A stretch of DNA of 64,000 nt, from NCBI GenBank assembly GCA_003971905.1, contig RSEE01000059.1:1-64000 (forward strand). The letters are read 5' to 3'. Made by a program: the position numbers and the translations under genes. The DNA comes from Moniliella sp. 'wahieum'. Its lineage: Eukaryota. This document shows, piece after piece, positions 2,005 to 57,847 of the stretch (its first letter is position 1; each line of letters begins with the position of its first letter). Below the pieces are notes generated by a model. The model was not told the origin of the DNA. It saw nothing but the letters and a program-made list of their open reading frames with translations, and ran no database searches.

Positions 2005-2348
2005 TGCTAGAGGGTAGTGCTAGGGTTCACCTGCACTCTCTCCAATGGATCGGTGATGCTCGCTGGTTCGGGTGATTCGAACCTTGCGTGGCCAACGCCA
2101 CCCCTTTGTCTGTTCCGACTTGCTTGCTTGACTCTTATCTTCTTCCCTTCAGCTTGCTTGAAGGACTTGTGGCTAACTGCCCTGCCTTCTTGCACGCCTT
2201 GAAGGTGCGCCTCTGCTTTCCCTGTTCTTGTGTTGTCCTCCGCAATCGAGCTTGCTTGAAGGACTTGTGGCTAACTGCCCTGCCTTCTTGCACGCCTTGA
2301 AGCTTATCTCTCGTGCTGCCCATAGCGTTTCCCAGCTGCAGTCTAGCA
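2005..2348 (+). repeat. 5' LTR (344 bp)
   Basis: TG...CA with a 7-bp terminal inverted repeat; matches 8097-8438 except for two 1-bp indels; contains an internal 54-bp direct repeat. Confidence 0.96.
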
Positions 2349-2362
2349 GGTTATGTCGCCCT
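2349..2362 (+). promoter_or_regulatory. Primer-binding site of the half-tRNA-iMet (copia/Ty5) type
   Basis: GGTTATGTCGCCCT directly after the LTR resembles the GGTTATGRGCCC PBS complementary to the initiator tRNA-Met anticodon arm. Confidence 0.7.
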
Positions 2363-4287
2363 TATCTTCTGCCTCTGCGCATTCTGCGCACCCGGTTTCC
2401 TCGCCTGATGACATTGTGGAAGCGTATGTTCGTCGTGGCGAGTTTAACCCCAACTCTCAAGACGGGATGGCTCCTGGCAAGACAGCGAAATGGCCGGCTT
2501 TTCGCATCAAGCACACGATTGGTGCTTGGTCTGGACTGAACACCATCCTGTGGGACGTTGACGTGGATGTCGCTGCCGATTTCATCCAGGACGTCATTCC
2601 TACCATTCGCCGCTGGGGTATCCCGGGGAAGGGCATAGCCTCCCCGGCCCCTGGTTCTGCAGTGGCAGACAAGGACTCTATTGTGGCTGATATCATTACC
2701 GACTACAATAAGGGCCATGGTGGCGAAAACTTCTTGCTCACACCGACCGACTTCTATGTTGCCTACGTCTTTTATACCAAGTCTCATCGCTTCTCCACCT
2801 TTGAGGACTTGCAGAAGGCAATCTTTCGCCATCTCAAGGCAGTGCGTAATGCTTGGAAACTGTACGAGGACAATAAGGCTTCCAAACATCGTGTTGCTCA
2901 GAAGCGTCGTGCCATGCGCGACATGCTCCTCGACCCAGAGGACCCAGCTCCAACTACCGAATCTGACGATGAACTTCAGCTTCTGACCGCTCGAGTCAGT
3001 ACTGAGTCAGTGCACCGTATTGACCTGTTGGGCACCCCGAAAGGTTCTGTTCCGACTGACAGTGGTATGGCTTTTGCTCATGACCCGTCGGCTGCTTTGC
3101 CGTCGGTGACCGTCCCTTCTGTGGAGCGTATCAGCGAGCGGGCCCCGTCTGCTCGCACGGTGACTATCGAGGAGCAGCCCAAGTGGGTGGATGCACCGCG
3201 TCTAGTCCAGGGACACATGAATTTCGATGTTATGACATTGGCGAAGCGTATGACGCGTGCTTTTGCTTCCTCGCCTCTGACACCTCTGGTGCATGGTCCC
3301 GAGCAAAATGACCCGTTGGCTGTTCTTCGCTGGCTGCAGGGCCTCCGTACTCGTTTGGCCATCATTTATCACGACTTTGCTTCGATCTTGGCCGGAACAA
3401 TGGAGGTGCCGCCGGGGGTGCACTCTCAGATCGTTGCGCAACTGATGACGCTGGTGTCGCCTGCCCTCGCGTCCTACATTTCGCGCCTCGCGACCACAAC
3501 GTCTCCCGGGATTCTTGACTCGGTTCCGGACTTCTTGTCGTGCTTGTTCGCGGAAGTACGTCTTTCTACGCCCAGCGTCTCTGAACTACAGCTGTCGGTG
3601 CACCAGACGGAATGGGATCCCAATGCAGAACCGGCTTCTAAGGCCCTGACGCGCTGGCTCGATTCCATCCAAGTTCTGACCCTCTTGGGGTACTCCACCT
3701 GGGACCCTGCACGTGTGATGTCCAGTTTGGAAGCCCTTTTCCGGCGTGGTGATTCGTATCGGCCGCTGATTTTCGCGGGGCTACCTCCCGGACAGCGTGT
3801 GACCGTGGCACACGTCAATTCTGTCTTGGGGGACTTGCAGTCGTTGGCCCGGGCCAACTTCGTCATGGAATCTAACCGGATTGCGTCCATCTCGGTACCT
3901 ACGGTTGAATCTTTGGCTGTTGATGTCTCTACCCCTCCCGTTAATTCGGGGACCACGGGACTGCTTGGGAACGCAGACATGTCTCTGGCAGCGCAGCTAC
4001 GAGCGATGGGGGTTGCGGCTGTCTGCTGGAATTGCCGCCAGCCTGGACATATCGCTGCCAACTGCCCGGCGCCGCGTCAGGACAACCGCATTTCTACCCG
4101 TGGTACGTCAGGATGGAATCGCACCCTCCCTGGGGCAGGACGGAACACGAATACCAACCGTGCGCCCCCACAGCAGCATGCTGTTGCGCGTGTGCTTCAA
4201 GCCTTGGCGCACGGCTTAACGGTAATGGATCTCTCCGTCTCAGAGGAGGATGGGCAGCCTGCCGCGGGGTTTGATGATATCGAATAG
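2353..4287 (+). CDS. gag: Gag (644 aa) with a CCHC zinc knuckle
   Basis: Uninterrupted ORF; CWNCRQPGHIAANC (CX2CX4HX4C) near the C-terminus; ends in TAG at 4285-4287. Confidence 0.92.
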   Translation: MSPLSSASAHSAHPVSSPDDIVEAYVRRGEFNPNSQDGMAPGKTAKWPAFRIKHTIGAWSGLNTILWDVDVDVAADFIQDVIPTIRRWGIPGKGIASPAPGSAVADKDSIVADIITDYNKGHGGENFLLTPTDFYVAYVFYTKSHRFSTFEDLQKAIFRHLKAVRNAWKLYEDNKASKHRVAQKRRAMRDMLLDPEDPAPTTESDDELQLLTARVSTESVHRIDLLGTPKGSVPTDSGMAFAHDPSAALPSVTVPSVERISERAPSARTVTIEEQPKWVDAPRLVQGHMNFDVMTLAKRMTRAFASSPLTPLVHGPEQNDPLAVLRWLQGLRTRLAIIYHDFASILAGTMEVPPGVHSQIVAQLMTLVSPALASYISRLATTTSPGILDSVPDFLSCLFAEVRLSTPSVSELQLSVHQTEWDPNAEPASKALTRWLDSIQVLTLLGYSTWDPARVMSSLEALFRRGDSYRPLIFAGLPPGQRVTVAHVNSVLGDLQSLARANFVMESNRIASISVPTVESLAVDVSTPPVNSGTTGLLGNADMSLAAQLRAMGVAAVCWNCRQPGHIAANCPAPRQDNRISTRGTSGWNRTLPGAGRNTNTNRAPPQQHAVARVLQALAHGLTVMDLSVSEEDGQPAAGFDDIE

Positions 4288-7200
4288 GGGTGCGCGCGGG
4301 GTGAGGCGCTCATTATCCTCGCAGAGGACTTGTTGAGCGCATTGTTTACCACTCGCCCAGGACGCGCGCCCCTTCTTTCCCCCCCTTCTTCTTCTAACAA
4401 CATCCCATCTCCACCTTGCTCCACACCTCGCTCGGCTGAATTTATCTTTGACAGCGGAGCCTCCCATCGCCTTGTCAATGATGCAAGCTTGGCGAAAAAC
4501 TTCGTGCCTCCCTCCCGTCCCACCTCGGTAGTCACTGCAGGGGGGCAGAAACTGCCGGTCGCTGGGGTGAATGGCACCTTACGCCTCCTACAATATGATC
4601 CATCCCAGCGCAAGTGGGAGGCGCTTCACTTCAATGGGGTTATGCTGGTACCTGACCTCATTACTAATCTCCTCAGTACCCAAGGAGTGGCAGCCACGGG
4701 TGGGAGTACGCTATTTCGGGACCATGAGGTGGTGTTTTTCACCAAGAATGGCACTTCCCTCGGGGTTCCACTGAAGGGCACCTACCCCAGAGCGGAAATG
4801 GTAGTGTGCACGGATGACTGCCAGGTGGAAGGTGCAGTATTAGCGTTCCCTATTCTCTCGGAGACTGAGGATGACTCTTTGAATGATCCTGATGACCAGT
4901 TGCGGGACAAACTCTTTCCTCGGCCTGTAGCTGAGACCCAGCCCCCGACTTGACGCGCGCGTCAGCTTGGTTGTGGCACCTTCGGCTTGGCCATGCCGGC
5001 GCTGAGGCCGTGAAACACACGTCTACGGCCAGCAAAGGGGGATCTTGGCCGCCTTCGTTTCCTGAGTTTTCTTCCTGCGATGTTTGCCGTACTGCCAAGT
5101 CGCGAGCCCGGGGGGGAATGATTCTCGTCTCATCTTGGCCCGCCTCGACCTGGTGTCAGCTGATGTGGTGGGCCCTTGGAATGAGCCAGATGCTTTGCAG
5201 CACAAGGTACCTTGGCACTACATTCTTGTCGTGGTGGACAATTACAGTGGCATGACCTGGGTCTGGCCGTTGAAGGACAAGGCCAGTGCTGCACCCTGCC
5301 TCATTCAGTGGGCTACCTTAATTCATCGCGAAACAGAAAAACATCCAAAAGAATTACGTGTGGACCAAGGCGAATTATGGACTAATGAGGTCAAGACATG
5401 GGCTGCTCGTTCAGGTTGCCTTTTGACAGCTTCTCCTACTCAAGAATCCACAGGGAACGCCGTCGCAGAGCGAATGAACCAAGAGATTGAGAAGTTGTCC
5501 CGTTGTCTCATGCACCACGCCCAGTTGCCGGGGCGGTTTTGGCCCTATGCTGCGACGCACGCCGGATACATTCACAACCGCCTCGCCAGCAAAGCGCATG
5601 CCTGGAAGACGCCGTATGAACTGTGGACGGGCCAACCCCCCACTCTGTCTGCTCTGCGGGTGTTTGGTTGCACTGCTTGGGTTGTGCTGCATGGTGGGAA
5701 TCGACGTGCCTGGACACAAGCTAGTGAACTCAGCGGCAAATACCTCGCTCCACGTGCCGTTCGAGGGGTGTACCTGGGTTACAGTGACCTGCCGGGCCAA
5801 GTCAAAGGTCAGTGTTTGGGTCGAGGTGTTGGACCGTATCGTGACAGTTTACGATGTGCATTTTGCTGAGGGAGAGTCGGGTCGGCTGGAGGAGCAGCCG
5901 CGCCTCCAGGACGATTATGTACGTGATATTCCCCTTGATCCCCTTGCTCAACCCTATCCCACAGCAGTGGGTGAAGATGGTATTGCTGGTGACATTCCCC
6001 CTCCTTTCCTCCGCGGCGTCCACCCACCCGGACCGCCGGGCCTTACACCCCACCGTCCCCTACAACACCCGGGAGGGACATCGCCCGCGCGGAGTTCCGG
6101 CGCATGCTCGACGTGACCAAGCGTGAGCGTGAAGCTGATCCACCAGCACTCGTTGACGAGCCCAGGAAGCGTGCTCGATCGGCTCTTGCTGTGGAGCTGG
6201 CAGTCGAACTTGATGCTGTGGACCTGGCTCCTGTCCCAGGGGGGCTGCTTGCGCAGGTCACTCTTGGCCTTGCCCATTTTGCTGCCGGGATGTTGCATGG
6301 TCCGGTGGCCACCGGCGGAGCCTACGCGACCCAGGCCCTGCATGCAGTTGCCGTGGTGCAGGACACACTAGCGCTCACAGCACAGGGTGAGCTCGTGGAT
6401 CGGCCTGCCAATGTTCCTGTTCTTCGGTGCCAGTGGGTGTTTAAAGCGAAGCTGGATGACACTCGTCAGGTTACCAAGCACAAAGCCCGTCTCGTTGCCG
6501 ATGGACGGACCCAGGTTCAAGGAGTGAACTTTGACGAGGTTTTTGCTCCGTTGTCAGGAGTGAGACCATCCGGGTCTTGCTCTCCTTGGCGTGTCGTTTT
6601 GGCCTGCATGTCCATCAAATGGATGTGGAGGCGGCATACTTACATGCGGCAGTTGACACTGAGGTTTACATGGCCATCCCGCCTGGCTTCAGGGGTCCTG
6701 ACACGGAGGGCAAGTGCTGGAAGTTGCTCAAGGGTGTTTACGGCCTACGCCAGGGGGGCAAGCTTTTCCACGACCATCTGGATGGGGTTTCTTACGTCTC
6801 GGCTACCACCGGTTGCAAGGGGAACCGTGTGTATATCTTCGCGGCCAGGGCAGTGCTTTGGTTCTGGTGGCCTGCTTTGTGGATGATACTGTTTGGGCCT
6901 GTGCCGACTTGACGCGCTTGCAAGAGGCCAAGCGCCAATTTGCCAAGCAATTGCCCGTGACTGATGGCGGCCCTGTCAGCTACTTGTTAGGGGTGAAGGT
7001 GGAGTATGATCAAGCAGCCCGTACCTGCTTCCTCAGCCAGCGGGGATACGTGGAGGGTGTGCTTGCGCATTATGGGGAAAAGCTAACCTCATCCCAGCCC
7101 TCGACCTGCTCGCCCGGCGCATCTACTACCTTTCTCGGGCCAAGCCAGTGATGCGGATCGTCGTCAGTATGCGGGGCTTATTGGTCACCTTGGCTTCGCT

Positions 7201-7839
7201 GCCTTAACACCCGCCCTGACATTGCTCAAGCTGTGGGCGTGTGTGGTCGCTTCATGGCTAACCCGGGACCAGATCACTTCAATGCCGCGTTTCAGGTCCT
7301 ACGCTTTCTTCGTCGCTCACCGGGAAAAGGTCTCCATTTCTCCTTTCACGCTGATGCGCCGTTGCTAAATGGGTTTAGCGATGCCGACTGGGCGGGGTGC
7401 CCGGCGAACCGGCGTTCGACCTCTGGGTATGTTTCTTTGTGGCTGGCAATTTGGTTTCTTGGTCGTCGCGGCAGCAACTCATGGTCACACTCTCGAGCAC
7501 CGAAGCGGAATATGTTGCCTGGCTCATGCGGCCAAGGAAGCAGTGTGGCTCAGGCTGTTGCTCCGGGAAATCTTACCACATGAGGAGGTGGTGCCCACCA
7601 TCTTCACTGACTCTCTCGGCGCCCGCAAGCTGGCCGAGGGCCACATCATTCACAAGCGCTCGAAGCACATCGATTTGCGGCACCACTTTCTGAGGGAACT
7701 CATTGCCGCCAACGTGCTCCTCTTGGCGCAAGTGGCGGGGGTGCACAATCCGGCTGACATGTTCACCAAGACGATCTCGGGCCGCGCAGTCGACGCTAGG
7801 GCGGAGCAACTTGGTCTGCGTGGTGGCGGTGGCAGCTAA
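4288..7839 (+). CDS. pol: Pol (protease, integrase, RT, RNase H); starts in frame after the gag TAG; several frameshifts in this assembly
   Basis: PR FIFDSGASH; WHLRLGH...CDVC; INT ADVVGP/VVDNYS/RVDQGE/NAVAERMN; RT WVFKAK, KARLVADG, QMDVEAAYL, KGVYGLRQ, FVDD; RH FSDADWAG, SSTEAEY, RSKHIDLRHHF, NPADMFTK. Confidence 0.93.
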
Positions 7840-8087
7840 CCACGTTGGGCTCCGGAGCCCTTCTTTCTCTCAAGACCGGTTTCTTTTCTTTCGTCTTGGC
7901 TTTCTCATCTACACAAATTAAATCGCAGCGGGACTGGGTTTTTTTTTTCTCGCATCCACGATGCGTTTGTTTTACCAGTTCCTGCTCACCAGAACAAATA
8001 CATGTTTGACGCTCGCGGCCGTGAATCATTTCTCCCTTTCGTCTCGATGTTCTTTGGCCTCACCACCTTTGGCCTGGCGAGCTCACC

Positions 8088-8095
8088 GAGGGGGG
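8088..8095 (+). promoter_or_regulatory. Polypurine tract
   Basis: GAGGGGGG ends 1 nt before the 3' LTR TG. Confidence 0.8.
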
Positions 8096-8096
8096 C

Positions 8097-8438
8097 TGCT
8101 AGAGGGTAGTGCTAGGGTTCACCTGCACTCTCTCCAATGGATCGGTGATGCTCGCTGGTTCGGGTGATTCGAACCTTGCGTGGCCAACGCCACCCCTTTG
8201 TCTGTTCCGACTTGCTTGCTTGACTCTTATCTTCTCCCTTCAGCTTGCTTGAAGGACTTGTGGCTAACTGCCCTGCTTCTTGCACGCCTTGAAGGTGCGC
8301 CTCTGCTTTCCCTGTTCTTGTGTTGTCCTCCGCAATCGAGCTTGCTTGAAGGACTTGTGGCTAACTGCCCTGCCTTCTTGCACGCCTTGAAGCTTATCTC
8401 TCGTGCTGCCCATAGCGTTTCCCAGCTGCAGTCTAGCA
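8097..8438 (+). repeat. 3' LTR (342 bp)
   Basis: Copy of 2005-2348. Confidence 0.96.
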
Positions 8439-8669
8439 GGGGGGTGGTAAGAAACCAACCAGATCCGTCGCCTGGCCCGTGCATTCATCCGCGCTGGCTG
8501 AAAATATTAACATTGCAATTGCACCGATGCACGCGCAGCCTGCGGGGTCAGATCAGCTCGGTCGCCACCAATTAGAACAAGCCCCCGCCACCACCAACTC
8601 GCCCATCGCCACACGCCCGTTCTCCACCGTGGTGCAACGCCCTCCACCTGTGCGCGTCTAAAAGAGGAC

Positions 8670-14905: not shown

Positions 14906-15002
14906 TGGTCAATATGAGGCTTGAACTCATGACCTTGGCATCACCAACACTTCCGAACGAAACGTATTAGTACCACGCTCTGACCAACTGAGCTAATCGA
15001 CC
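14906..15002 (-). tRNA. tRNA-Ile(AAT) with a 23-nt intron (14942-14964)
   Basis: GGTCGATTAGCTCAGTTGGTCAGAGCGTGGTACT-AAT-A[intron]ATGCCAAGGTCATGAGTTCAAGCCTCATATTGACCA followed by a T-run terminator. Confidence 0.93.
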
Positions 15003-19420: not shown

Positions 19421-19506
19421 TGGACGAATAGGGAATCGAACCCCAGACCTCACACAGGAGCAATCATGATGCGAAGCGTGCGCTCTACCAACTGAGCTAT
19501 CCGCCC
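19421..19506 (-). tRNA. tRNA-Ala(CGC) with a 13-nt intron (19457-19469)
   Basis: GGGCGGATAGCTCAGTTGGTAGAGCGCACGCTT-CGC-A[intron]TGTGTGAGGTCTGGGGTTCGATTCCCTATTCGTCCA followed by a T-run. Confidence 0.93.
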
Positions 19507-26753: not shown

Positions 26754-26837
26754 GGCCTCTTGGCGCAGCGGGTAGCGCGTGAGATTCCAGTTTGTTCTGG
26801 CTCCTCAAGGTCATCCGTTCAAATCGGGTAGGGGTCA
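26754..26837 (+). tRNA. tRNA-Trp(CCA) with an ~11-nt intron (26791-26801)
   Basis: GGCCTCTTGGCGCAGCGGGTAGCGCGTGAGATT-CCA-G[intron]TCCTCAAGGTCATCCGTTCAAATCGGGTAGGGGTCA followed by a T-run. Confidence 0.88.
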
Positions 26838-43249: not shown

Positions 43250-44581
43250 TCAGGCGGGAGTCAGCGGCTCAGGTGCAGCTATCTGGGCCTCTTGCGGGCC
43301 AAAGTTATCCACCACCTGGGATCCCTCAGGGAGTGCAAGTTCACCCTTGTCAAGCATATCTTGCAGGTACCCAACAGTGGGAATGGTCTGGGACCAAATA
43401 TGGTCCCCAACAACCAGAGGCCGATACTTGCGTTGGATCTCTTGGTCCTTAGGAGCGTGGAGGGGTTGGAATGTGGTGTGGTAGTCTGGAGCCCAAAAGA
43501 GAGGGAAAGAAAACCGCTCTTGCTGGCCCATGGGTCGAACACGATGCCGGGTTGCGACATACTTGCCTCCAGACAAGAGTTCGGTCATGTCCCCAATATT
43601 GAGGACGAGCGTGCCTGGGCGTGGCGGGGCATCCACCCACTGGCCCTGACCGTTGAGAACCTCCAACCCTGGCTGTTCTGACAGGAGAAGCGTCAAGCAC
43701 TCAAAGTCTGAGTGGGCCTGCATGCCCATCTCTTCGTTGGCCGGATCAAAATCAGGGAGAGCGGGGTAGTGCAACAAGCGCAAGCTGGCAGGAGGGGCGG
43801 CTTGGGAGCTCATGTAATCCAAAGCGTTAGGGGGTAGGCCGAGGCTCATCCCCAGCGCTTGCCACAGACGGTGACCCAGATGATATACCGCGTTGTAATA
43901 GTCCATCACTCTCTTGCGGAAGAGGGGAACGTCCTCTTCGCGAGGCCACAGATTGTGGCCCAAAAGAGGCGTTTGGGCTTGTACGAGAGGGTGAGTAGAA
44001 GGGATCTCATATCCCACATCAAACGCTTCCTTGATATCCCCAGCAATCGGACGGTCGCTGGAGCGAAATTCGTCTCGGGGCTGGTAACCCTTGTGACTGG
44101 GGAATGACTTGCCAATGTAGGCCTCCATGCGCTTAGCTTCGTCCAGTGCGTAAAAGTCTTTGGCGGCCGATTGGAGTCCATGGATAAGCTCAGGGGAGAT
44201 ACCATGGCCGGCAATGTAGGTGAATCCAACCCGCTCGGCTACAGCACCAAGTTCATCCGCCACCCTCTGTTGCTCAGTCAGGTCGGGAGAGAGTCCACTG
44301 ACATTGAGGGTAGGAATCGAATTGAAGTCGCCATGCTTGTTCGTCCGCTCGTGTGGGCTCCGAAAAGTCGAAGACAAGGGGGTAGTGTGGGGGCGCACCT
44401 GACAACGGGGAAGGAGCGCGCTGGAAACAGGAAAGGGCAAGGCTTGGGCGGAGGAAAGTATGGGCAAGGGAGTGGTGGTCATGCTGGGAACCTTCCCTGT
44501 CCCCCACGCCCTTTGGGCACGGAGGGCAGATGAGAAAGGCAAGTTGCTGCGTGTTGCGGCAGCCGATCGGGCGGCAATCAT
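43250..44581 (-). CDS. 2-oxoglutarate/Fe(II) dioxygenase, IPNS-like family, intronless
   Basis: VGFTYIAGHGI, LRLLHYP, HSD...H triad (AHSDFECLTLL, TRHRV), RFS co-substrate motif; 443-aa intact ORF. Confidence 0.93.
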   Translation of the reverse strand: MIAARSAAATRSNLPFSSALRAQRAWGTGKVPSMTTTPLPILSSAQALPFPVSSALLPRCQVRPHTTPLSSTFRSPHERTNKHGDFNSIPTLNVSGLSPDLTEQQRVADELGAVAERVGFTYIAGHGISPELIHGLQSAAKDFYALDEAKRMEAYIGKSFPSHKGYQPRDEFRSSDRPIAGDIKEAFDVGYEIPSTHPLVQAQTPLLGHNLWPREEDVPLFRKRVMDYYNAVYHLGHRLWQALGMSLGLPPNALDYMSSQAAPPASLRLLHYPALPDFDPANEEMGMQAHSDFECLTLLLSEQPGLEVLNGQGQWVDAPPRPGTLVLNIGDMTELLSGGKYVATRHRVRPMGQQERFSFPLFWAPDYHTTFQPLHAPKDQEIQRKYRPLVVGDHIWSQTIPTVGYLQDMLDKGELALPEGSQVVDNFGPQEAQIAAPEPLTPA

Positions 44582-49514: not shown

Positions 49515-52500
49515 TCAGTCGTGTCCGACGACAAAGAGCAAGTCGCCCGCGGAGACCGAGTCGCCAGCCTCGACGACGATACGTTTGACCTTTCCCGATA
49601 CGGGGGAGGAAACGACGGTTTCCATCTTCATTGCGCTCAGGACGGCGAGGGGGTCACCTGCCTTGACCTGGTGCCCTTCTTGTGCGCGGACTTCGACCAC
49701 GACGGCAGCCAAGGGCGATCCTACTTCGCCTGGTTCGCCCGCGCGTGCACGTTCGCGATGCACCGTCTCTACGGCCGCGCTCTTGTCCTCGACAATGATG
49801 GAGCGAGGTTCTGCGTTCAGCTCAAAGAAGACTTCGCGAGTGCCCTTGTCTGGGTTGACGGCGCCGACAGCGAGAAGCTTGATGATGAGCAACTTGCCAC
49901 GGTCAATGTACGCGTGAATTTCCTCGCCAACGGGGGCCTTGCTAAGGAAGTAGCGCGTGGGCATGTGGGAAAGGTCACCATACTTGTCCAAAAACGCATA
50001 GAACTCTTCAAACACCTTGGGGTACATGGCGTACTAATCGCATCCGCTGTGGTGATCGTCTTGCCATACTTCTTGGTCAAGTCCTTCTTGATCTGGCGCA
50101 GGTCGACAGGCGCCATCGTAGCGCCTGGACGCCCTTCGATCTTGGGCTTACCACGCAAGATCTTGGTCCGAAGGGGCTCAGGGAACCCACCGGGGGGCGT
50201 ACCGAGGTAGCCTTGGAAGTACTCAATCACCGAGCTGGGGAAGTCGAGCTTGTCAGCCCGGGCCTCGACCTCGTCTTGGGTCAACTTGTTGGCCACCAGG
50301 AACTGAGCAAAGTCACCGACGACCTTGGACGACGGCGTGACCTTGACAATGTCACCGCAGAGCTTGTTGGCCACAATGTAGGCCTTCTTGATCTCGCTCC
50401 ATTGGCTGCCCAGGCCGAGGGACATGGACTGGAACATGAGGTTGGTGTACTGACCGCCGGGCATCTCGTGGTCAAACACGGACGAATCCGAAGCCTTCAC
50501 TTCCTGCTCAAAGCACTGGTACAGTTGGCGCACCGAAGTCCAGTACAGGTTGAGCGCCATGATGTCTTCGTGACGAATACCAGGGCCAAGACCGGTCTGT
50601 TCCAGCGCAGCGACCAGCGCGCCCATCGAAGGCTGCGACGTAAGGCCCGACATGGAGTCAATCGCAACGTCCACCACGTCGGCACCCGCCTCGGCGGCAG
50701 CAAGCATCGAGCTCAGCGCAATGCCCGCCGTGTCATGCGAGTGCACGTGGATGGGCAAGTCGGGGTACTTTTTGCGAATGGTGCCAATGAGCAACCGGGC
50801 CGCGGCTGGCTTGAGCAACCCAGCCATGTCCTTGACACCGAGAATGTGGATGCCCGTCTTGACCAATTCGTCAACGAGGTGCATGTAGTAGTCCAGCGTG
50901 TACTTGGGGTGCGCCTTGGGGTTGGCCACATCACCCGTGTAGCACACTGTGCCTTCCGCCACACCGCCCGCCTTCTTGGCCGCGTCAATGCCCAGGCGCA
51001 GACTGCCGAGGTCGTTGAGCGAGTCAAAGACACGGAAAATATCCAGCCCATTCTCAACTGCCTTCTTGCTAAACTCGTAGATCAAGTTGTCCGGGTAAGA
51101 CGTGTAGCCCACCGCGTTGGCACCACGAACAAGTGCCTGGAAAGGGATGTTGGGCACGAGCTTACGCAGCTTGCGCAACCGCTCCCACGGGTCTTCGTAC
51201 AAGAAGCGCATGGCCACATCAAATGTAGCGCCACCCCAGCATTCGAGAGAGAATGCGTTCTTCAACGCATACGAAGTCGTCTTGGCAATGTTGGTCATCT
51301 CAATCGTCCGCAAACGCGTGGCCAGCAGCGACTGGTGAGCATCACGCCATGTGGTATCCATAATCAGAGTACCCTTGTAGGCGCACTGCCTTGGCAAACG
51401 CCTCGGGTCCTTCGTGGAGAAGGATGGAACGCCATCCTTCTTGGCACGGCACAGCCGTGTCAATGGTCTGCGTCGGGTCATCCGGGTTGGTCAGGGTCGG
51501 GATCTCGATCTCCTTCTTGAGTCCTGGCTCGCCCATCTGGCCCTGGATGGAGGTCCCGTTGACCGCCATGTCACCAAGGTAAGCTAGAAGCTTCTGCGCC
51601 CGGTTCTGGCTCTGGACCAGGTTGAAGAGCTCGGGCGTGTCGTCGATCATTGTCGTCCAGGTGTTGGCCGAGGCAAAGGCATCGTGTGTGATGAGACGAA
51701 CAAGGAAAGGGATGTTTGTCTTGACGCCCCGGATACGGAACTCAACAAGCGCACGCAGCATCTTGCGCCGGGTCACCTCATACGTCGCTCCACGGCAAGT
51801 CACCTTGACCAAAAGCGAGTCGTAGTGGGGCGTGATCTGCGCACCGGCAAATCCGCTCGAGGCATCGAGGCGCACACCATTGCCACCGGCCGAACGGTAG
51901 ACTTCGATCTTGCCCGTATCCGGCTGGAAGTTCTGGGTCGGGTCCTCGGTGGTGATACGGCACTGAATGGCCGAGCCACGCTTCTGGATGGTCTGCTGGG
52001 TCAGACCCAGGTCGTCCAGAGTCGCACCGGCTGCGATTTGGATTTGGGCGCCGACAATGTCAATGCCCGTGATCTCTTCAGTGATGGTGTGTTCAACCTG
52101 AAGACGCGGGTTGATCTCGATAAAGTAGTGGCGGTTCTGCTGGTCGACCAAGAACTCGGCTGTACCAGCGTTGCGGTAGCCTGCCGTCTTGGCCAGCTTG
52201 ACAGCATCTGTCAGGATGGCCTGGCGGACCTTCTCGTGCAGGTTGGAGGCTGGGGCCACCTCCACCACCTTCTGATGCCGGCGCTGGACTGAACAGTCGC
52301 GCTCAAACAAGTGCACCACATTGCCCTCGCCATCAGCGAGGAGTTGCACTTCAATGTGGCGCGGGTGGTCAAGGAAGCGCTCAATGAACACAGTCGGGTC
52401 GCCAAACGCCGACTTGGCCTCCGACTTGGCCATGGAGAAAGCCTGTTCAAATTCATCCGCGCTGCGCACCACACGCATACCACGACCGCCACCGCCAAAG

Positions 52501-53177
52501 GCGGCCTTGATGATGACAGGGAAGCCCGCCTCCTTGATGAACGCCTTGGCCTCCTCGAAACTCTCGATCGGGCCAGGGGTACCGGGAACAATTGACACCC
52601 CAGCTCGGCGGTAGGTCACGAGCCTTGACCTTGTCGCCCAGCCCATCGATCGTCTCGGGACGCGGGCCGATAAAGGCAATGCCGGCAGCTTCGACCTTGC
52701 GCGCAAACTCGGCGTTCTCGGAGAGGAAGCCGTACCCCGGGCTGGAAGAAGAAAGAGGTTAGCCCTATGCGACAGTCCATAGAGCGTCGGGGGGGAAGGG
52801 GAACATACTGGATCATGTCTACGCCGTGATCGAGAGCAATGCGGATAATGTCGTCGATGGCCAAGTAGGCACCGACGGCGGACAGGCCGCACCGACCTGG
52901 TACGCCTCGTCGGCCTTCCAGCGGTGGGCGGACATGCGGTCCTCGTTGGAGTAGATGGCGACGGTGGACATGGCAAACTCGTGGGCGGTGCGGAAGACGC
53001 GGATGGCGATCTCGCCGCGGTTGGCCACCATGAGCTTGCGCAGCGGCTCGCCATCGTCGGCGCCGCCCATGTTCTGGCGGATCTTGGCGAGGGTGGGGAT
53101 GGCATGTCCGGTGAGGACGCTGGGCGTGGCGGGACGCTGACGAAGGGGTCGACGACGGAGGGGTTGTGCTCAGCCAT
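49515..53177 (-). CDS. PYC1: Pyruvate carboxylase; intron 52742-52808; frameshifted in the assembly
   Basis: [75 protein letters not shown] biotin site. Confidence 0.97.
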
Positions 53178-54299
53178 CGTCGGCGCAGATCGGGGTGGTG
53201 GGGGGAGGGCGAGGAGCGTGGCCGAGGCGAAGAAAAGCAAGCGAGGAGCACAACCACACAGACAGACGCTGCCCCGTGCGCAGCCGCCCTTGCCCCGGCC
53301 GCACGGCGCCAGCCAGCGCCCCGTGCATGCGCTGCCCAGCGCCCTGGCTGCCCCGCTGCCCAGCCGCCCAGCCGGGCCGCGCCCCCCCGTGCTGCCGGTG
53401 GCTCGTGCCACGCGCGGCCGCCCGCACCGCGCCGCTCTCCCCGCACCGCGGGCTGCACACAGGCGCCCGGCCGGACGAGCCAGCCTGGCCAGGCCCCAGG
53501 AGCCTTAGCGCTGCGGCCGGGGCCCGCGGGCGCGTCGACGCACTGCGCCACGCACTGGCGCCGTGCGGCCGCTGCAGGGCACGCACGGGGGGAGCACGAA
53601 GCGAGCGTGCTTCCACACTGGTGCCGAGCCCTGCTGGGATTGATGCGAAATGGTGGGTGATCGAGTGGTCGCCCAGCACGGCAGCTGCCCCGGCGGCGGC
53701 GTTGGATGATCGATCAGCGCTTGTCGTCCCACAGAAAGCGGCGGCCCCGTCGGCTGCGTTCCCACCGCCTCCGTCCCCCTCAGGCCACCCCACTCCCGAC
53801 TCACGCGCCGCGCCTCCGCCTCCCCTCCGCTCCGCCTCGCGCCCCAGCGCACCCGCGGCTCCAGCCTTCGCAGCCTCCCTAGGATGGGGCAGGATCAATC
53901 TCCATGATCGATCGCTGGATTCTGACGGGTGCGCTCCACCCTCTCCTCGCTTTTTCTCACGCCCAGCCTCCGTCCCACTCCGTCTGAGTACTCAGTATCA
54001 TTCTTCCCTGACCGCCTGACCCTGGCCATCTCACCCGTTACCTTTTCTTCCCACCGCGGCCGGCAAACACGACTCAAGATTCACAAGGTTATGTATTTCG
54101 CAACAACTCAACAGTGGGCATGCGGGGCCCCATCGCTATCATTGATCATCGATCATAGCACTCTCTTTGCGTTTTCGTTCCCACGCACGTTCCGATAACA
54201 TGATTTCTTTTGTCACAAGAAAGAACAACGCATTGTCTTCTTGTACTGACCAAGGCCAGGAATATTGAATGCAGGACAGACAGGGCCTGCTGCCTAGAC

Positions 54300-56805: not shown

Positions 56806-57847
56806 CAGGACGCCATGTACGTGTCTTCCCTCCCTTTTCTTGCCCTTCTTCCCCATCGTGATGAAGACACAGATAATCCATTCCCTGATCAAGTGGGAGG
56901 ACGCCGCGCGGAGGAGATGGGTCTTTGGCCCTTACCTTTCCGCACCGCGGCTGCTGGAGTGCTAGGCAACTCAGGGTCGTCAGGCCCAGGCGGCTCCTTG
57001 CTCGGCTTGTTTCCCCCGTGGGGGTGGCAGGTAGGCAGGTGTGAGCCACCAGGGCCTTGTATGGCACTGTGGGTTGCTGGCCAATCCAGTGGCTGCGGCA
57101 TGCAGTTCCTCCCCTGTGTGACGCGACCATCTTTCTCTGATTCTTTGCTCCGTCCCCTGCTGGTAGCCAATGTGAAGTAAGTACTAACGAGTGACGTTGA
57201 TGATGTTCAGGCTGCGATGCATCTGTTGCCACGTGTCCGATACCAGGCCTCTTCGCGCCTCACTTGCTTGAGGGGGTTGCTACAGCCAAAACTTGTACTC
57301 TATTCAATAATCATGCACCGTATCGTTTGGCATCGTACCGTATGGAATAGGCCCCACAGACCAGGCAGTTATAGGAAGACTAACGAGTGAGTAGTCATGC
57401 TCGGCATGGTTTTCAATTGAGTTCGCTTCAGTTCTCCACTGATCGGTTTGCCAAGTCCTATGTGTGCGGCGCGGCAACCATTTTGAGAGGACAAACAATG
57501 GTCTTGCTGCCTGTCTGCTTGGTCGGGGACTGGGCCCTACTCCTTTCTCTGCCCCCCCCCCGATGGTATTCTCTGGGGATCGGCATCAAGCATGCTCCGC
57601 TCGCAGGGAGAAACAGGTTGTACATGGCCGGTATAGGAAAAGGATGCATCGCAGAGAGCGGCGCCTATTTGAGCAACTTAACTTCACCTTCGAATAACAC
57701 CACGAAGTAGGGGGTGGGTGGGGACACAGATGTGCGCATGTGTACGCAAGGATCGACGTCCTTTCGGTCTTATGTCTTTCCTATACTAGCCTCACCAATC
57801 ATCCTTGCAGCTGGAGAGAGGTGATGAGCCAATAACAAGCGTGCATG

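Follow-up and report, generated by a model that had tools for sequence, protein, structure and literature searches.

The gag-pol readthrough cassette of MuLV is of Type III and is composed of UAG-G, an 8-nt purine-rich spacer and an H-type pseudoknot (PMC13517186, PMC3159437). Type III, in the classification of Beier and Grimm, denotes UAG-G together with a structure, and readthrough cassettes often have structures 3' of the stop (PMC3159437). In alphaviruses, several plant viruses, Colorado tick fever virus and two genes of Drosophila (kelch and headcase), the structure is a long imperfect stem-loop located directly 3' of the stop, which is leaky there, and both arms of the stem are coding. 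In these extended stem-loops the basal stem counts more than the interior (PMC3159437). The known stimulators keep a single-stranded spacer of 7-9 nt, and the sequence of the spacer matters in MuLV (PMC3159437, PMC13517186).

The closest described case in a copia element is Tca2, in which the stop is UGA and is followed by a purine-rich spacer of 8 nt and a bulged pseudoknot (PMC2194720). As described in that source, the Tca2 junction (UGA, spacer and pseudoknot, 300 nt) gave 0.3% readthrough in S. cerevisiae, which equals that of the control stop, and displayed weak promoter activity, while Pol expression tracked the LTR promoter and not the junction promoter (PMC2194720). An earlier reading of the present locus from its sequence only (the sequence-only reading) had cited Tca2 as a case of readthrough; the junction gave none in the S. 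cerevisiae reporters of that source, and this part of the background is off. Tj1, Tosmo and Tcry1 are Ty3/gypsy elements of fission yeasts, in which the gag stop lies in a conserved GAA-TGA-CT. The stop is essential for transposition of Tj1, and a downstream structure is not mentioned in the available text of the source (bioRxiv 10.1101/2022.12.06.519325).

The locus compared here is located in a 64-kb stretch of DNA (the window, meaning the whole stretch that was analysed) and belongs to a young and probably still intact Ty1/copia retrotransposon of an Ustilaginomycotina fungus (Table 1). Features of the Ty1/copia class are present, namely two direct LTRs, TG...CA ends and a short flanking GGGGG duplication, the last of which is weakly informative because both copies sit in G runs. 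The two LTRs are 99% identical and their sole differences are two 1-nt gaps; as they show no substitution, there has been little time for mutation. The Pfam domains follow the order zf-CCHC, Pol_BBD, gag_pre-integrs, rve, SH3_retrovirus and RVT_2, which places the integrase ahead of the reverse transcriptase as in Ty1/copia, and a tblastn comparison of the related protein P0003 with the element is collinear. The N-terminal region of gag (aa 18-140) has 31% identity to a single protein (P0013). Seven of the eight coding segments checked are free of internal stops, and the single internal stop of the eighth (6798-7199) coincides with a local frame switch.

Table 1. Coordinates, within the window, of the element and of its gag/protease junction.
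Feature	Position	Strand	Remarks
5' LTR (TG...CA)	2005-2348	+	GGGGG at 2000-2004 just upstream, probable 5-bp target-site duplication
gag ORF	2353-4287, including TAG	+	ATG start, 644 codons; ATG 5 nt past the LTR
CCHC zinc knuckle of gag, CWNCRQPGHIAANC	4024-4065	+	
In-frame UAG ending gag	4285-4287	+	Context GAA-UAG-GGG; hairpin pairing starts with its A and G
Whole nested hairpin, 88 nt	4286-4373	+	Minimum-energy fold, -52.6 kcal/mol
Lower helix, 12 bp	5' strand 4286-4297 with 4361 and 4363-4373	+	Extends the helix 4288-4296/4363-4371 of the sequence-only reading
Open continuation of the gag frame	4288-4950	+	221 codons; ALFT motif 4339-4350, FDSGASH 4447-4467, Pol_BBD domain
Upper hairpin	4299-4358	+	14-nt 5' strand 4299-4312; 11-nt 3' bulge 4341-4351
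Second helix	4299-4305 with 4352-4358	+	
Third helix	4306-4312 with 4334-4340	+	
Apical helix	4316-4320 with 4324-4328	+	Loop GCA; apical stem-loop 4314-4332
All-pyrimidine tract, 27 nt	4369-4395	+	Shares 4369-4373, the final five paired bases, with the hairpin and continues 3'
Remaining pol: pre-integrase, integrase, RVT_2 reverse transcriptase, RNase H	4950-7839	+	Split over several frames
Polypurine tract GAGGGGGG	8088-8095	+	
3' LTR	8097-8438	+	GGGGG at 8439-8443 just downstream

The sequence-only reading had gag ending in GAA TAG, with the same frame continuing without a stop into the protease and no ATG ahead of it, and all of this stands. The TAG is followed by GGG, the frame remains open for 221 codons after the stop, a stretch that takes in the FDSGASH motif, and the first in-frame ATG after the stop (4642) is located downstream of the active site. 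The remaining two frames are closed after the junction, one by a stop at 4334 and the other by stops at 4302, 4395 and 4437. Over the 865 codons of gag and protease the TAG is the only in-frame stop, and it is separated by 73 codons from the zinc knuckle upstream and by 54 from the catalytic Asp downstream, which is the canonical gag/protease boundary. The assembled sequence places UAG-G between an upstream ORF and a start-less downstream ORF, as in Type III. A BLASTP alignment to P0003 begins at residue 16 after the stop (LSALFT versus MTALFT, 39% identity over 151 aa), and ALFT, the first conserved peptide motif of the downstream ORF, is encoded within the hairpin. Because this frame is the only open one, has no AUG ahead of the active site and carries a motif common to the nearest relatives, the stretch after the stop is probably translated, and in the gag frame.

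All four nested helices that had been described after the stop are present in the minimum-energy fold of the region. Pair probabilities calculated in a 501-nt context are at least 0.88 for 30 of the 33 pairs, and the bases right after the stop are paired with a probability of 0.99. The earlier description of the hairpin as having no spacer is correct for the lower helix, which starts within the stop codon, but not for the inner helix, which starts 11 nt after it, a position close to that of known stimulators. The upper hairpin folded alone gives -28.9 kcal/mol. A scan of Rfam returned no match near its thresholds.

Dinucleotide shuffles of the hairpin fold at -32.3 +/- 3.4 kcal/mol, and none of the 200 is as good as the native sequence (z -6.05). 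The hairpin ranks first among 2003 windows of 91 nt on the sense strand of the element (GC-corrected z -4.5). On both strands of the whole 64 kb, 22 of 25564 windows fold at -52.6 kcal/mol or lower, and 19 of the 25 most stable windows listed fall in a tract of 79-86% GC at 53.26-53.58 kb. Synonymous recodings of the same 29 codons never fold as well (0 of 2000; mean -32.1, z -4.25), and the z of 27 control blocks has a median of -0.04 and goes no lower than -2.62. Because the hairpin beats the other windows of the element as well as every shuffle and every recoding, selection on the RNA is argued for, rather than a by-product of the peptide. The codon choice in the hairpin is tuned for pairing.

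Like the MuLV cassette, the junction combines UAG-G, in frame at the boundary of gag and protease, with a stable 3' structure, and the RNA element also codes for the N-terminal part of the protease (PMC13517186, PMC3159437). However, the predicted fold is a long nested hairpin, whereas MuLV has a pseudoknot. Pairing begins inside the stop codon and not after an 8-nt single-stranded spacer, so that bases equivalent to the single-stranded spacer positions of known stimulators are paired (PMC3159437, PMC13517186). The fold predicted here, a nested hairpin with a paired foot, differs from the single-stranded 8-nt spacer and H-type pseudoknot of a MuLV- or Tca2-type signal. MuLV is moreover a retrovirus, whereas the present element is a fungal Ty1/copia retrotransposon seen as sequence and predicted fold. 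With Tca2 it shares a fungal host, the copia class, a common frame for gag and pol, a stop between them and a predicted structure after the stop, but here the stop is UAG and the structure a hairpin (PMC2194720). The viral and Drosophila stem-loops resemble the hairpin in their length, position and coding arms, but are mostly associated with UGA-C and spacers of 7-9 nt, in contrast to the UAG-G and paired foot here, and are backed by synonymous-site conservation and compensatory changes, whereas this hairpin is known from one copy (PMC3159437). Tj1, Tosmo and Tcry1 are likewise fungal LTR retrotransposons with an in-frame gag stop after GAA (bioRxiv 10.1101/2022.12.06.519325), and differ from the present element in superfamily and in stop context.

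The reading of the stop and hairpin rests on a single copy in an error-prone assembly. Downstream of 4950, pol is split over frames 1 to 0 to 2 ... 2 to 1 to 0 to 2 to 1, with every step in the direction of a 1-nt deletion; this frame splitting is absent from the sequence-only reading. Independent contigs (X1) have one extra base relative to the assembly at each of 6045, 6547, 6788 and 7201 (about 1136 nt of pol), of which those at 6547 and 6788 correspond to tblastn frame switches and that at 7201 to a switch in the three-frame translation. X1 records 2-6 show no substitution with respect to the assembly over about 1480 nt. The host pyruvate carboxylase gene also contains three frame switches on contiguous DNA. 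Because of the extra bases in X1, the one-directional switches and the switches in the host gene, the pol frameshifts are most simply assembly errors and not decay, and a chance nonsense mutation at the TAG is therefore correspondingly unlikely. All errors documented in the assembly (pol, LTRs and host gene) are 1-nt indels. Cover by the X1 contigs stops at 4154 and resumes after 4508, the TAG and hairpin being read from the assembly. X1 confirms the gag frame to 4154 and homology the protease frame from 4333, and the 178 nt between them come from the assembly, so the claim of a shared gag/pol frame is weakened over 4155-4332 by its 1-nt indel errors. A single copy of the element was seen, and no DNA relative was found in the collections searched.

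In the best seven relatives of the protease (P0002-P0008) the protease is N-terminal in the predicted protein and not joined to a gag, in gene models that are unannotated or fragmentary, while more distant matches have gag and protease in one ORF. The unfused protease of these seven predicted proteins would fit a clade in which gag and pol are separated. P0002 and P0005 reach 43-50 aa upstream of the ALFT motif, compared with 17 codons in this element, and because of this longer extension the break of these two does not correspond in place to the one here and may be a frameshift. Among named relatives, the best for the protease are from Ustilago, and no sequence kinship to Candida albicans Tca2 was seen.

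Judged from its sequence, the junction is plausibly a programmed gag-pol readthrough cassette. Structure-stimulated UAG readthrough had been proposed earlier as the way in which Pol is made; the anatomy fits such a cassette, but the spacer-less wording, the Tca2 precedent and the overlooked indel errors of that proposal need correction. We infer that the stop is ancestral to the family and read through, and that the hairpin stimulates the readthrough. A young element with a genuine in-frame UAG, a small readthrough fraction yielding Gag-Pol and the hairpin acting as a signal of UAG-G plus 3' structure has, in our estimate, an even chance of being correct. In such an element, the majority of ribosomes would end at the UAG and produce Gag of 644 aa, while in a small fraction a near-cognate tRNA would decode the UAG and translation would continue in the same frame through protease, integrase and reverse transcriptase to give Gag-Pol. 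About 11-12 nt 3' of the codon in the A site are located in the entry channel (PMC13517186), so the lower helix, whose 12 bp take in the A and G of the stop, must be melted with the UAG in the A site, and the ribosome would open it in bringing the UAG there. The 14-bp upper helix (4299-4358, -28.9 kcal/mol), which begins 11 nt past the stop, would then be positioned at the opening of the mRNA channel and may slow or disturb termination by analogy with the MuLV pseudoknot and the alphavirus stem-loops. A purine at +4 alone makes a good termination context, and the readthrough reading therefore leans wholly on the structure. In yeast, AA ahead of the stop favours readthrough (bioRxiv 10.1101/2022.12.06.519325). 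That a spacer-less two-tier hairpin, with a foot sequestering the UAG, works as a readthrough stimulator is a tentative idea and on balance doubtful. If true, no gag-pol readthrough signal that depends on structure would have been shown in Ty1/copia before it, nor one in a basidiomycete, and a helix melted before the ribosome reaches the stop could take the place of the single-stranded spacer that the MuLV and alphavirus signals have. A bolder variant, in which editing turns the paired A of the UAG into inosine, like the A of the amber/W site in hepatitis delta, is conceivable.

A single gag-pol ORF is the common state in copia elements (PMC5580714, citing Gao 2003), and if the family has it, the TAG would be a nonsense mutation or base-call error and the hairpin would serve another role at the junction, such as a ribosome pause that lets Gag fold, dimerisation or packaging of the RNA, or the supply of a small-RNA precursor. 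One copy seen, an error-prone assembly, X1 contigs that skip 4155-4508 and the fusion of gag and protease in distant relatives are compatible with this. However, the documented errors do not include a substitution, the LTRs leave little time for mutation, the stop has no counterpart elsewhere in gag and protease and none of the seven nearest relatives has gag fused to the protease. That a stop should fall no more than one base from the element's strongest hairpin would also be a chance event of about 1 in 1000 or rarer, and we regard a defect of this copy as unlikely. Decidedly unlikely in our view is a real and efficient stop with Pol supplied by other copies in trans or by a separate transcript, in which case the hairpin and pyrimidine tract might shield an RNA with a long 3'UTR against nonsense-mediated decay or signal where the gag message ends. 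RNA elements 3' of the gag stop prevent decay in Rous sarcoma virus, which provides a retroviral precedent, and the pyrimidine tract here shares the hairpin's 3' end and extends beyond it. The Tca2 junction, with promoter activity and no readthrough in the assays of PMC2194720, points in the same direction, but Pol of Tca2 followed the LTR promoter in that source. Because no in-frame AUG occurs from the stop to the protease active site, a separate Pol message would need a non-AUG start or would lose the conserved N-terminal motif, and free Pol would need a route into particles.

Relative to the X1 contigs, the assembly has 1-nt deletions at four places in about 1136 nt of pol; there are two more in the 3' LTR and apparently three in the host gene, and a base could likewise be missing in 4288-4332 (or 4272-4285). 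Pol would then be truly in the +1 frame and overlap the end of gag as in Ty1, with the hairpin as a frameshift stimulator or pause site. The stretch 4155-4332 is outside both the X1 contigs and the homology, the window frame shifted by one base to the right stays open over about 4225-4333, so that an overlap would exist, and the ORFs of P0002 and P0005 extend well upstream of ALFT like overlapping pol frames. Nevertheless, we consider a hidden frameshift very unlikely: the error must hit one 45-nt stretch (a chance of about 4-11% at 1 in 400 to 1 in 1200 nt), the 2.6 kb of gag and protease have no frame break, the hairpin is preceded by neither a Ty1-like or Ty3-like shift heptamer nor a gag-phase X XXY YYZ, and its 5' arm pairs without a gap that would hint at a lost base. 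As assembled, a Ty1-type +1 frameshift is not seen and holds only if a base is missing in 4288-4332, and a -1 programmed frameshift was rejected, with pol in frame 0 and GGGTTTG (4267-4273) out of phase and 12 nt from the helix. The least probable explanation is removal of the stop in the RNA, either by splicing of a small intron spanning the TAG from some transcripts or by A-to-inosine change of the UAG (UIG = Trp), modelled on fungal ADAT-type editing or the hepatitis delta site. Sixteen in-frame GT...AG intervals would remove the TAG without a new stop, one of them with a fair 5' site (GTACGT at 4103), but none has a CTRAY branch site within 50 nt of the AG and most would remove conserved residues or half of the hairpin. 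Forbes et al. raised inefficient splicing-out of the stop for Tca2 and judged it unlikely (PMC2194720). In filamentous ascomycetes, A-to-I editing favours hairpins and an A preceded by U, and UAG is frequently edited (PMC11156358), but such editing in fungi is described from ascomycete sexual stages and acts on hairpin loops, whereas the host here is a basidiomycete and the A is paired at the foot of the stem.

The all-pyrimidine tract at the 3' end of the hairpin encodes a Pro/Ser-rich linker, and in a 201-nt fold it pairs with a purine run at about 4242-4250.

The window holds one LTR retrotransposon, and a blastn search of the element against the 64-kb window returned its own LTRs only, with no further copies. 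The order of its predicted Pfam domains (CCHC zinc knuckle, copia Pol beta-barrel/protease, GAG-pre-integrase, integrase core, retroviral SH3-like and RVT_2) identifies it as a member of Ty1/copia. The element is flanked by GGGGG on both sides. Two 1-nt gaps are the sole differences between its LTRs, the 3' LTR being two bases shorter, and each LTR carries a 54-nt direct repeat (2151-2204 and 2249-2302 in the 5' LTR). A degenerate tandem array with periods of 21, 39, 78 and 132, G-rich and strongly GC-skewed, is present just upstream of the element (579-1153). The host belongs to Ustilaginomycotina (Fungi). For its pyruvate carboxylase, identity is 86% with the protein of one NCBI genome and 83-84% with the proteins of Tilletia horrida, Ceraceosorus, Jaminaea and Ustilago. 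Among named relatives, those closest to the element protease come from Ustilago hordei and U. bromivora (P0004-P0006).

Features of the element and of the rest of the window
Feature	Position	Strand	Remarks
5' LTR	2005-2348	+	TG...CA ends
gag ORF	2353 (ATG) to 4287	+	644 codons; GAA-TAG at 4282-4287
CCHC zinc knuckle of gag	4024-4065	+	Pfam
3' LTR	8097-8438	+	TG...CA ends
tRNA-Arg(ACG)	14906-15002		
Odd tRNA-like call	19421-19506		
tRNA-Gly(TCC)	26754-26837		
2OG-Fe(II) oxygenase gene	43250-44581	-	
Pyruvate carboxylase gene	49521-53127	-	frame changes three times

The gag product is of unusual length (644 aa) and its N-terminal third (noted as 2353-3250) is without a Pfam family. A phmmer search with a gag+Q+PR query (PR, protease) gave 42 matches at E<=1e-3. 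Eight of these are confined to the zinc-knuckle stretch of gag, and only P0013, a 300-aa protein from Logan contigs, aligns elsewhere in it (residues 18-140, 31% over 127 aa). This one fragment is the only gag relative detectable beyond the zinc knuckle among 1.84 billion representative proteins, and a search for gag homologues of near length found none. With gag as query, all clusters returned by the ESM Atlas were either unnamed or zf-CCHC, at 0.92, and added nothing. Such near-absence of gag relatives suggests that the family may form a distinct copia lineage of Ustilaginomycotina. With the gag ATG placed 5 nt past the LTR, the ORF includes the primer-binding region, an arrangement also found in Ty1.

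The sequence-only reading had described the frame as open past the TAG into the protease, with no ATG ahead of the protease motif. Both points hold, as 221 further codons are free of stops, FDSGASH is encoded at 4447-4467 and the first in-frame ATG is at 4642. Stops close both alternative frames, one at 4334 and the other at 4302, 4395 and 4437. Judged by homology, the stretch after the stop is translated, because BLASTP aligns it to P0003, the nearest full-length Pol (1156 aa, from an NCBI genome), starting 16 residues past the stop, with LSALFT opposite MTALFT, and continuing through the protease at 39% identity. The ALFT/AFFT motif ahead of DSG is also present in two other close protease relatives, P0002, likewise from Logan contigs, and P0005, and in the element ALFT is encoded at 4339-4350, within the 3' arm of the hairpin described below.

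All seven best matches to the gag+PR query have the protease at the N-terminus and are without gag; in more distant matches gag and protease are present in a single protein. This pattern fits a gag/pol break in the clade. The gene models of these relatives are unannotated or fragmentary and two of them extend upstream beyond the 17 codons seen here, so gag and pol may be separated in them by something other than a stop at this site. Searches with the element protein and with an alignment (A2) gave no related loci in metagenome contigs; the protein query gave none in prokaryote genome contigs and a single weak chance match in viral contigs, where A2 gave none.

The sequence at and directly after the stop folds into a hairpin (4286-4373) which contains exactly the four nested helices that had been picked out in the sequence-only reading. 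Its folding energy is -52.6 kcal/mol compared with -32.3 +/- 3.4 for shuffled sequences, none of 200 being as good, and 30 of its 33 pairs have a probability of at least 0.88 in a 501-nt context. The hairpin ranks first among 2003 windows on the sense strand of the element, and over the whole 64 kb on both strands 22 of 25564 windows fold at -52.6 kcal/mol or lower. Random synonymous recoding of the same 29 codons did not reproduce this stability in any of 2000 trials (mean -32.1, z -4.25), whereas for 27 control blocks from gag and PR the recoding test gave z values with a median of -0.04 and a lowest value of -2.62. The hairpin thus arises from codon choice and not from the peptide. The observation of a stop followed by this hairpin is real and statistically strong. 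Rfam gave three matches, all far under gathering scores. Among the 25 most stable 91-nt folds listed, 19 are located in one tract of 79-86% G+C (53260-53575) just upstream of the minus-strand pyruvate carboxylase gene. Outside recognised genes there is another long imperfect hairpin, about 110 nt in length (56965-57078, plus strand; -68 kcal/mol, z -3.45, matched by 1 of 200 shuffles); it was considered as kin of the gag-pol hairpin and rejected, the two sequences being unrelated.

The most likely reading of the junction, to which we give about an even chance, is that UAG-G and a 3' structure direct programmed readthrough, Type III in the classification of Beier and Grimm as presented in PMC3159437; all of this we infer. 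A signal without spacer had been claimed earlier. Pairing does start inside the stop codon (A4286-U4373 and G4287-C4372), but the upper hairpin (4299-4358) starts 11 nt past it. The ribosome entry channel is described as holding some 11-12 nt on the 3' side of the A-site codon (PMC13517186), and because of this the 12-bp lower helix would already be open once UAG occupies the A site. The upper hairpin, which folds at -28.9 kcal/mol by itself, would then stand at the channel mouth. The pseudoknot of MuLV and the stems of alphaviruses, for which spacers of 7-9 nt are given (PMC3159437, PMC13517186), lie close to this position. As described for MuLV (PMC13517186), the RNA element doubles as coding sequence for the N-terminal part of the protease. 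An AA context before the stop has been reported to favour readthrough in yeast, and the Tj1 family is reported to have GAA ahead of the stop, as is the case here (bioRxiv 10.1101/2022.12.06.519325). Structure-associated stop-codon readthrough at a gag-pol junction is a known kind of signal, and the candidate described here would be a variant of it in a little-known fungal copia lineage.

Outside retroviruses there is no settled account of how Pol is made by LTR retrotransposons whose gag ends in an in-frame stop. Tca2 of Candida albicans is the only such copia element known to have been studied, and the sequence-only reading had counted it as a known case of readthrough. This is not borne out by the reporter data in PMC2194720, where readthrough at the 300-nt Tca2 junction (UGA, 8-nt spacer and pseudoknot) was 0.3% in S. 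cerevisiae and did not exceed that of a control stop. The initial signal was traced to a weak internal promoter, yet Pol tracked the LTR promoter (PMC2194720). The presence of a structure after a stop does not, therefore, prove readthrough. Beyond Tca2, the open-access literature searched gave no described copia/Pseudoviridae UAG-hairpin readthrough signal and no recoding in Ustilago copia. The present element is a second fungal copia case and has a cleaner signal than Tca2, with UAG-G and a hairpin tuned at synonymous sites at very strong statistical significance. Its compact cassette of about 150 nt would allow structure-stimulated readthrough in fungi, and the need for a spacer, to be tested.

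Reliability of the reading frame bears directly on this junction. Past 4950, pol is spread over frames 1, 0, 2, ... 2, 1, 0, 2, 1, each step being in the direction of a lost base, and at least seven frame breaks are present in about 2.9 kb of pol (4950-7839) vs none in 2.6 kb of gag plus PR. We read these switches as assembly errors rather than decay, because the LTRs differ by 1-nt gaps only and because, of eight coding segments checked, seven have no stop inside them and the remaining one has a single stop, located where the frame switches locally. The same is indicated by contigs of an independent run from a food-metagenome study (X1), which in records 2-6 match the element without substitutions yet have a single extra base at each of 6045, 6547, 6788 and 7201, of which 6547 and 6788 fall on tblastn frame switches and 7201 on a switch in the three-frame translation. 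The frame of the host pyruvate carboxylase also switches three times within contiguous DNA, for example between residues 591/592 at 51381/51382. With the frameshifts read in this way the element looks young and intact; the same errors mean that frames in the window cannot be fully trusted. The X1 contigs (95-100% identity) confirm gag to 4154 and leave 4155-4508 and both flanks outside their cover, and the PR frame is confirmed by homology from 4333; both the TAG and the 5' hairpin arm fall in the unchecked 178 nt between. Two further runs gave chance pieces of 18-21 nt only.

Several alternatives were weighed. A nonsense change specific to this copy, with the hairpin serving some other purpose, is unlikely, since an element that looks young and intact is a poor candidate for a chance nonsense mutation. 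Translation of Gag only, in which the RNA would be protected by the hairpin and a pyrimidine tract and Pol would be provided in some other way, appears less probable again. We put somewhat below it a +1 frameshift element masked by a base missing in 4288-4332, within the stretch confirmed neither by X1 nor by homology.

Least probable of these alternatives, it seems, is that splicing or A-to-I editing removes the stop. Although 16 in-frame GT..AG intervals are present, none contains a branch-site motif, and the fungal editing cases described in PMC11156358 are from ascomycete sexual stages with a preference for hairpin loops, whereas in the present basidiomycete host the A of UAG is paired. 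Programmed readthrough remains the reading that we favour.

X1 covers about 40% of the element and neither flank of the insertion, which suggests several copies of the element in that sample. Its first record, a contig of 446 nt, joins 7947-8235 to 2249-2398 and so runs from the 3' internal region via an LTR into the start of gag; this junction corresponds to tandem elements or a one-LTR circle, or may be an assembly path through the LTR.
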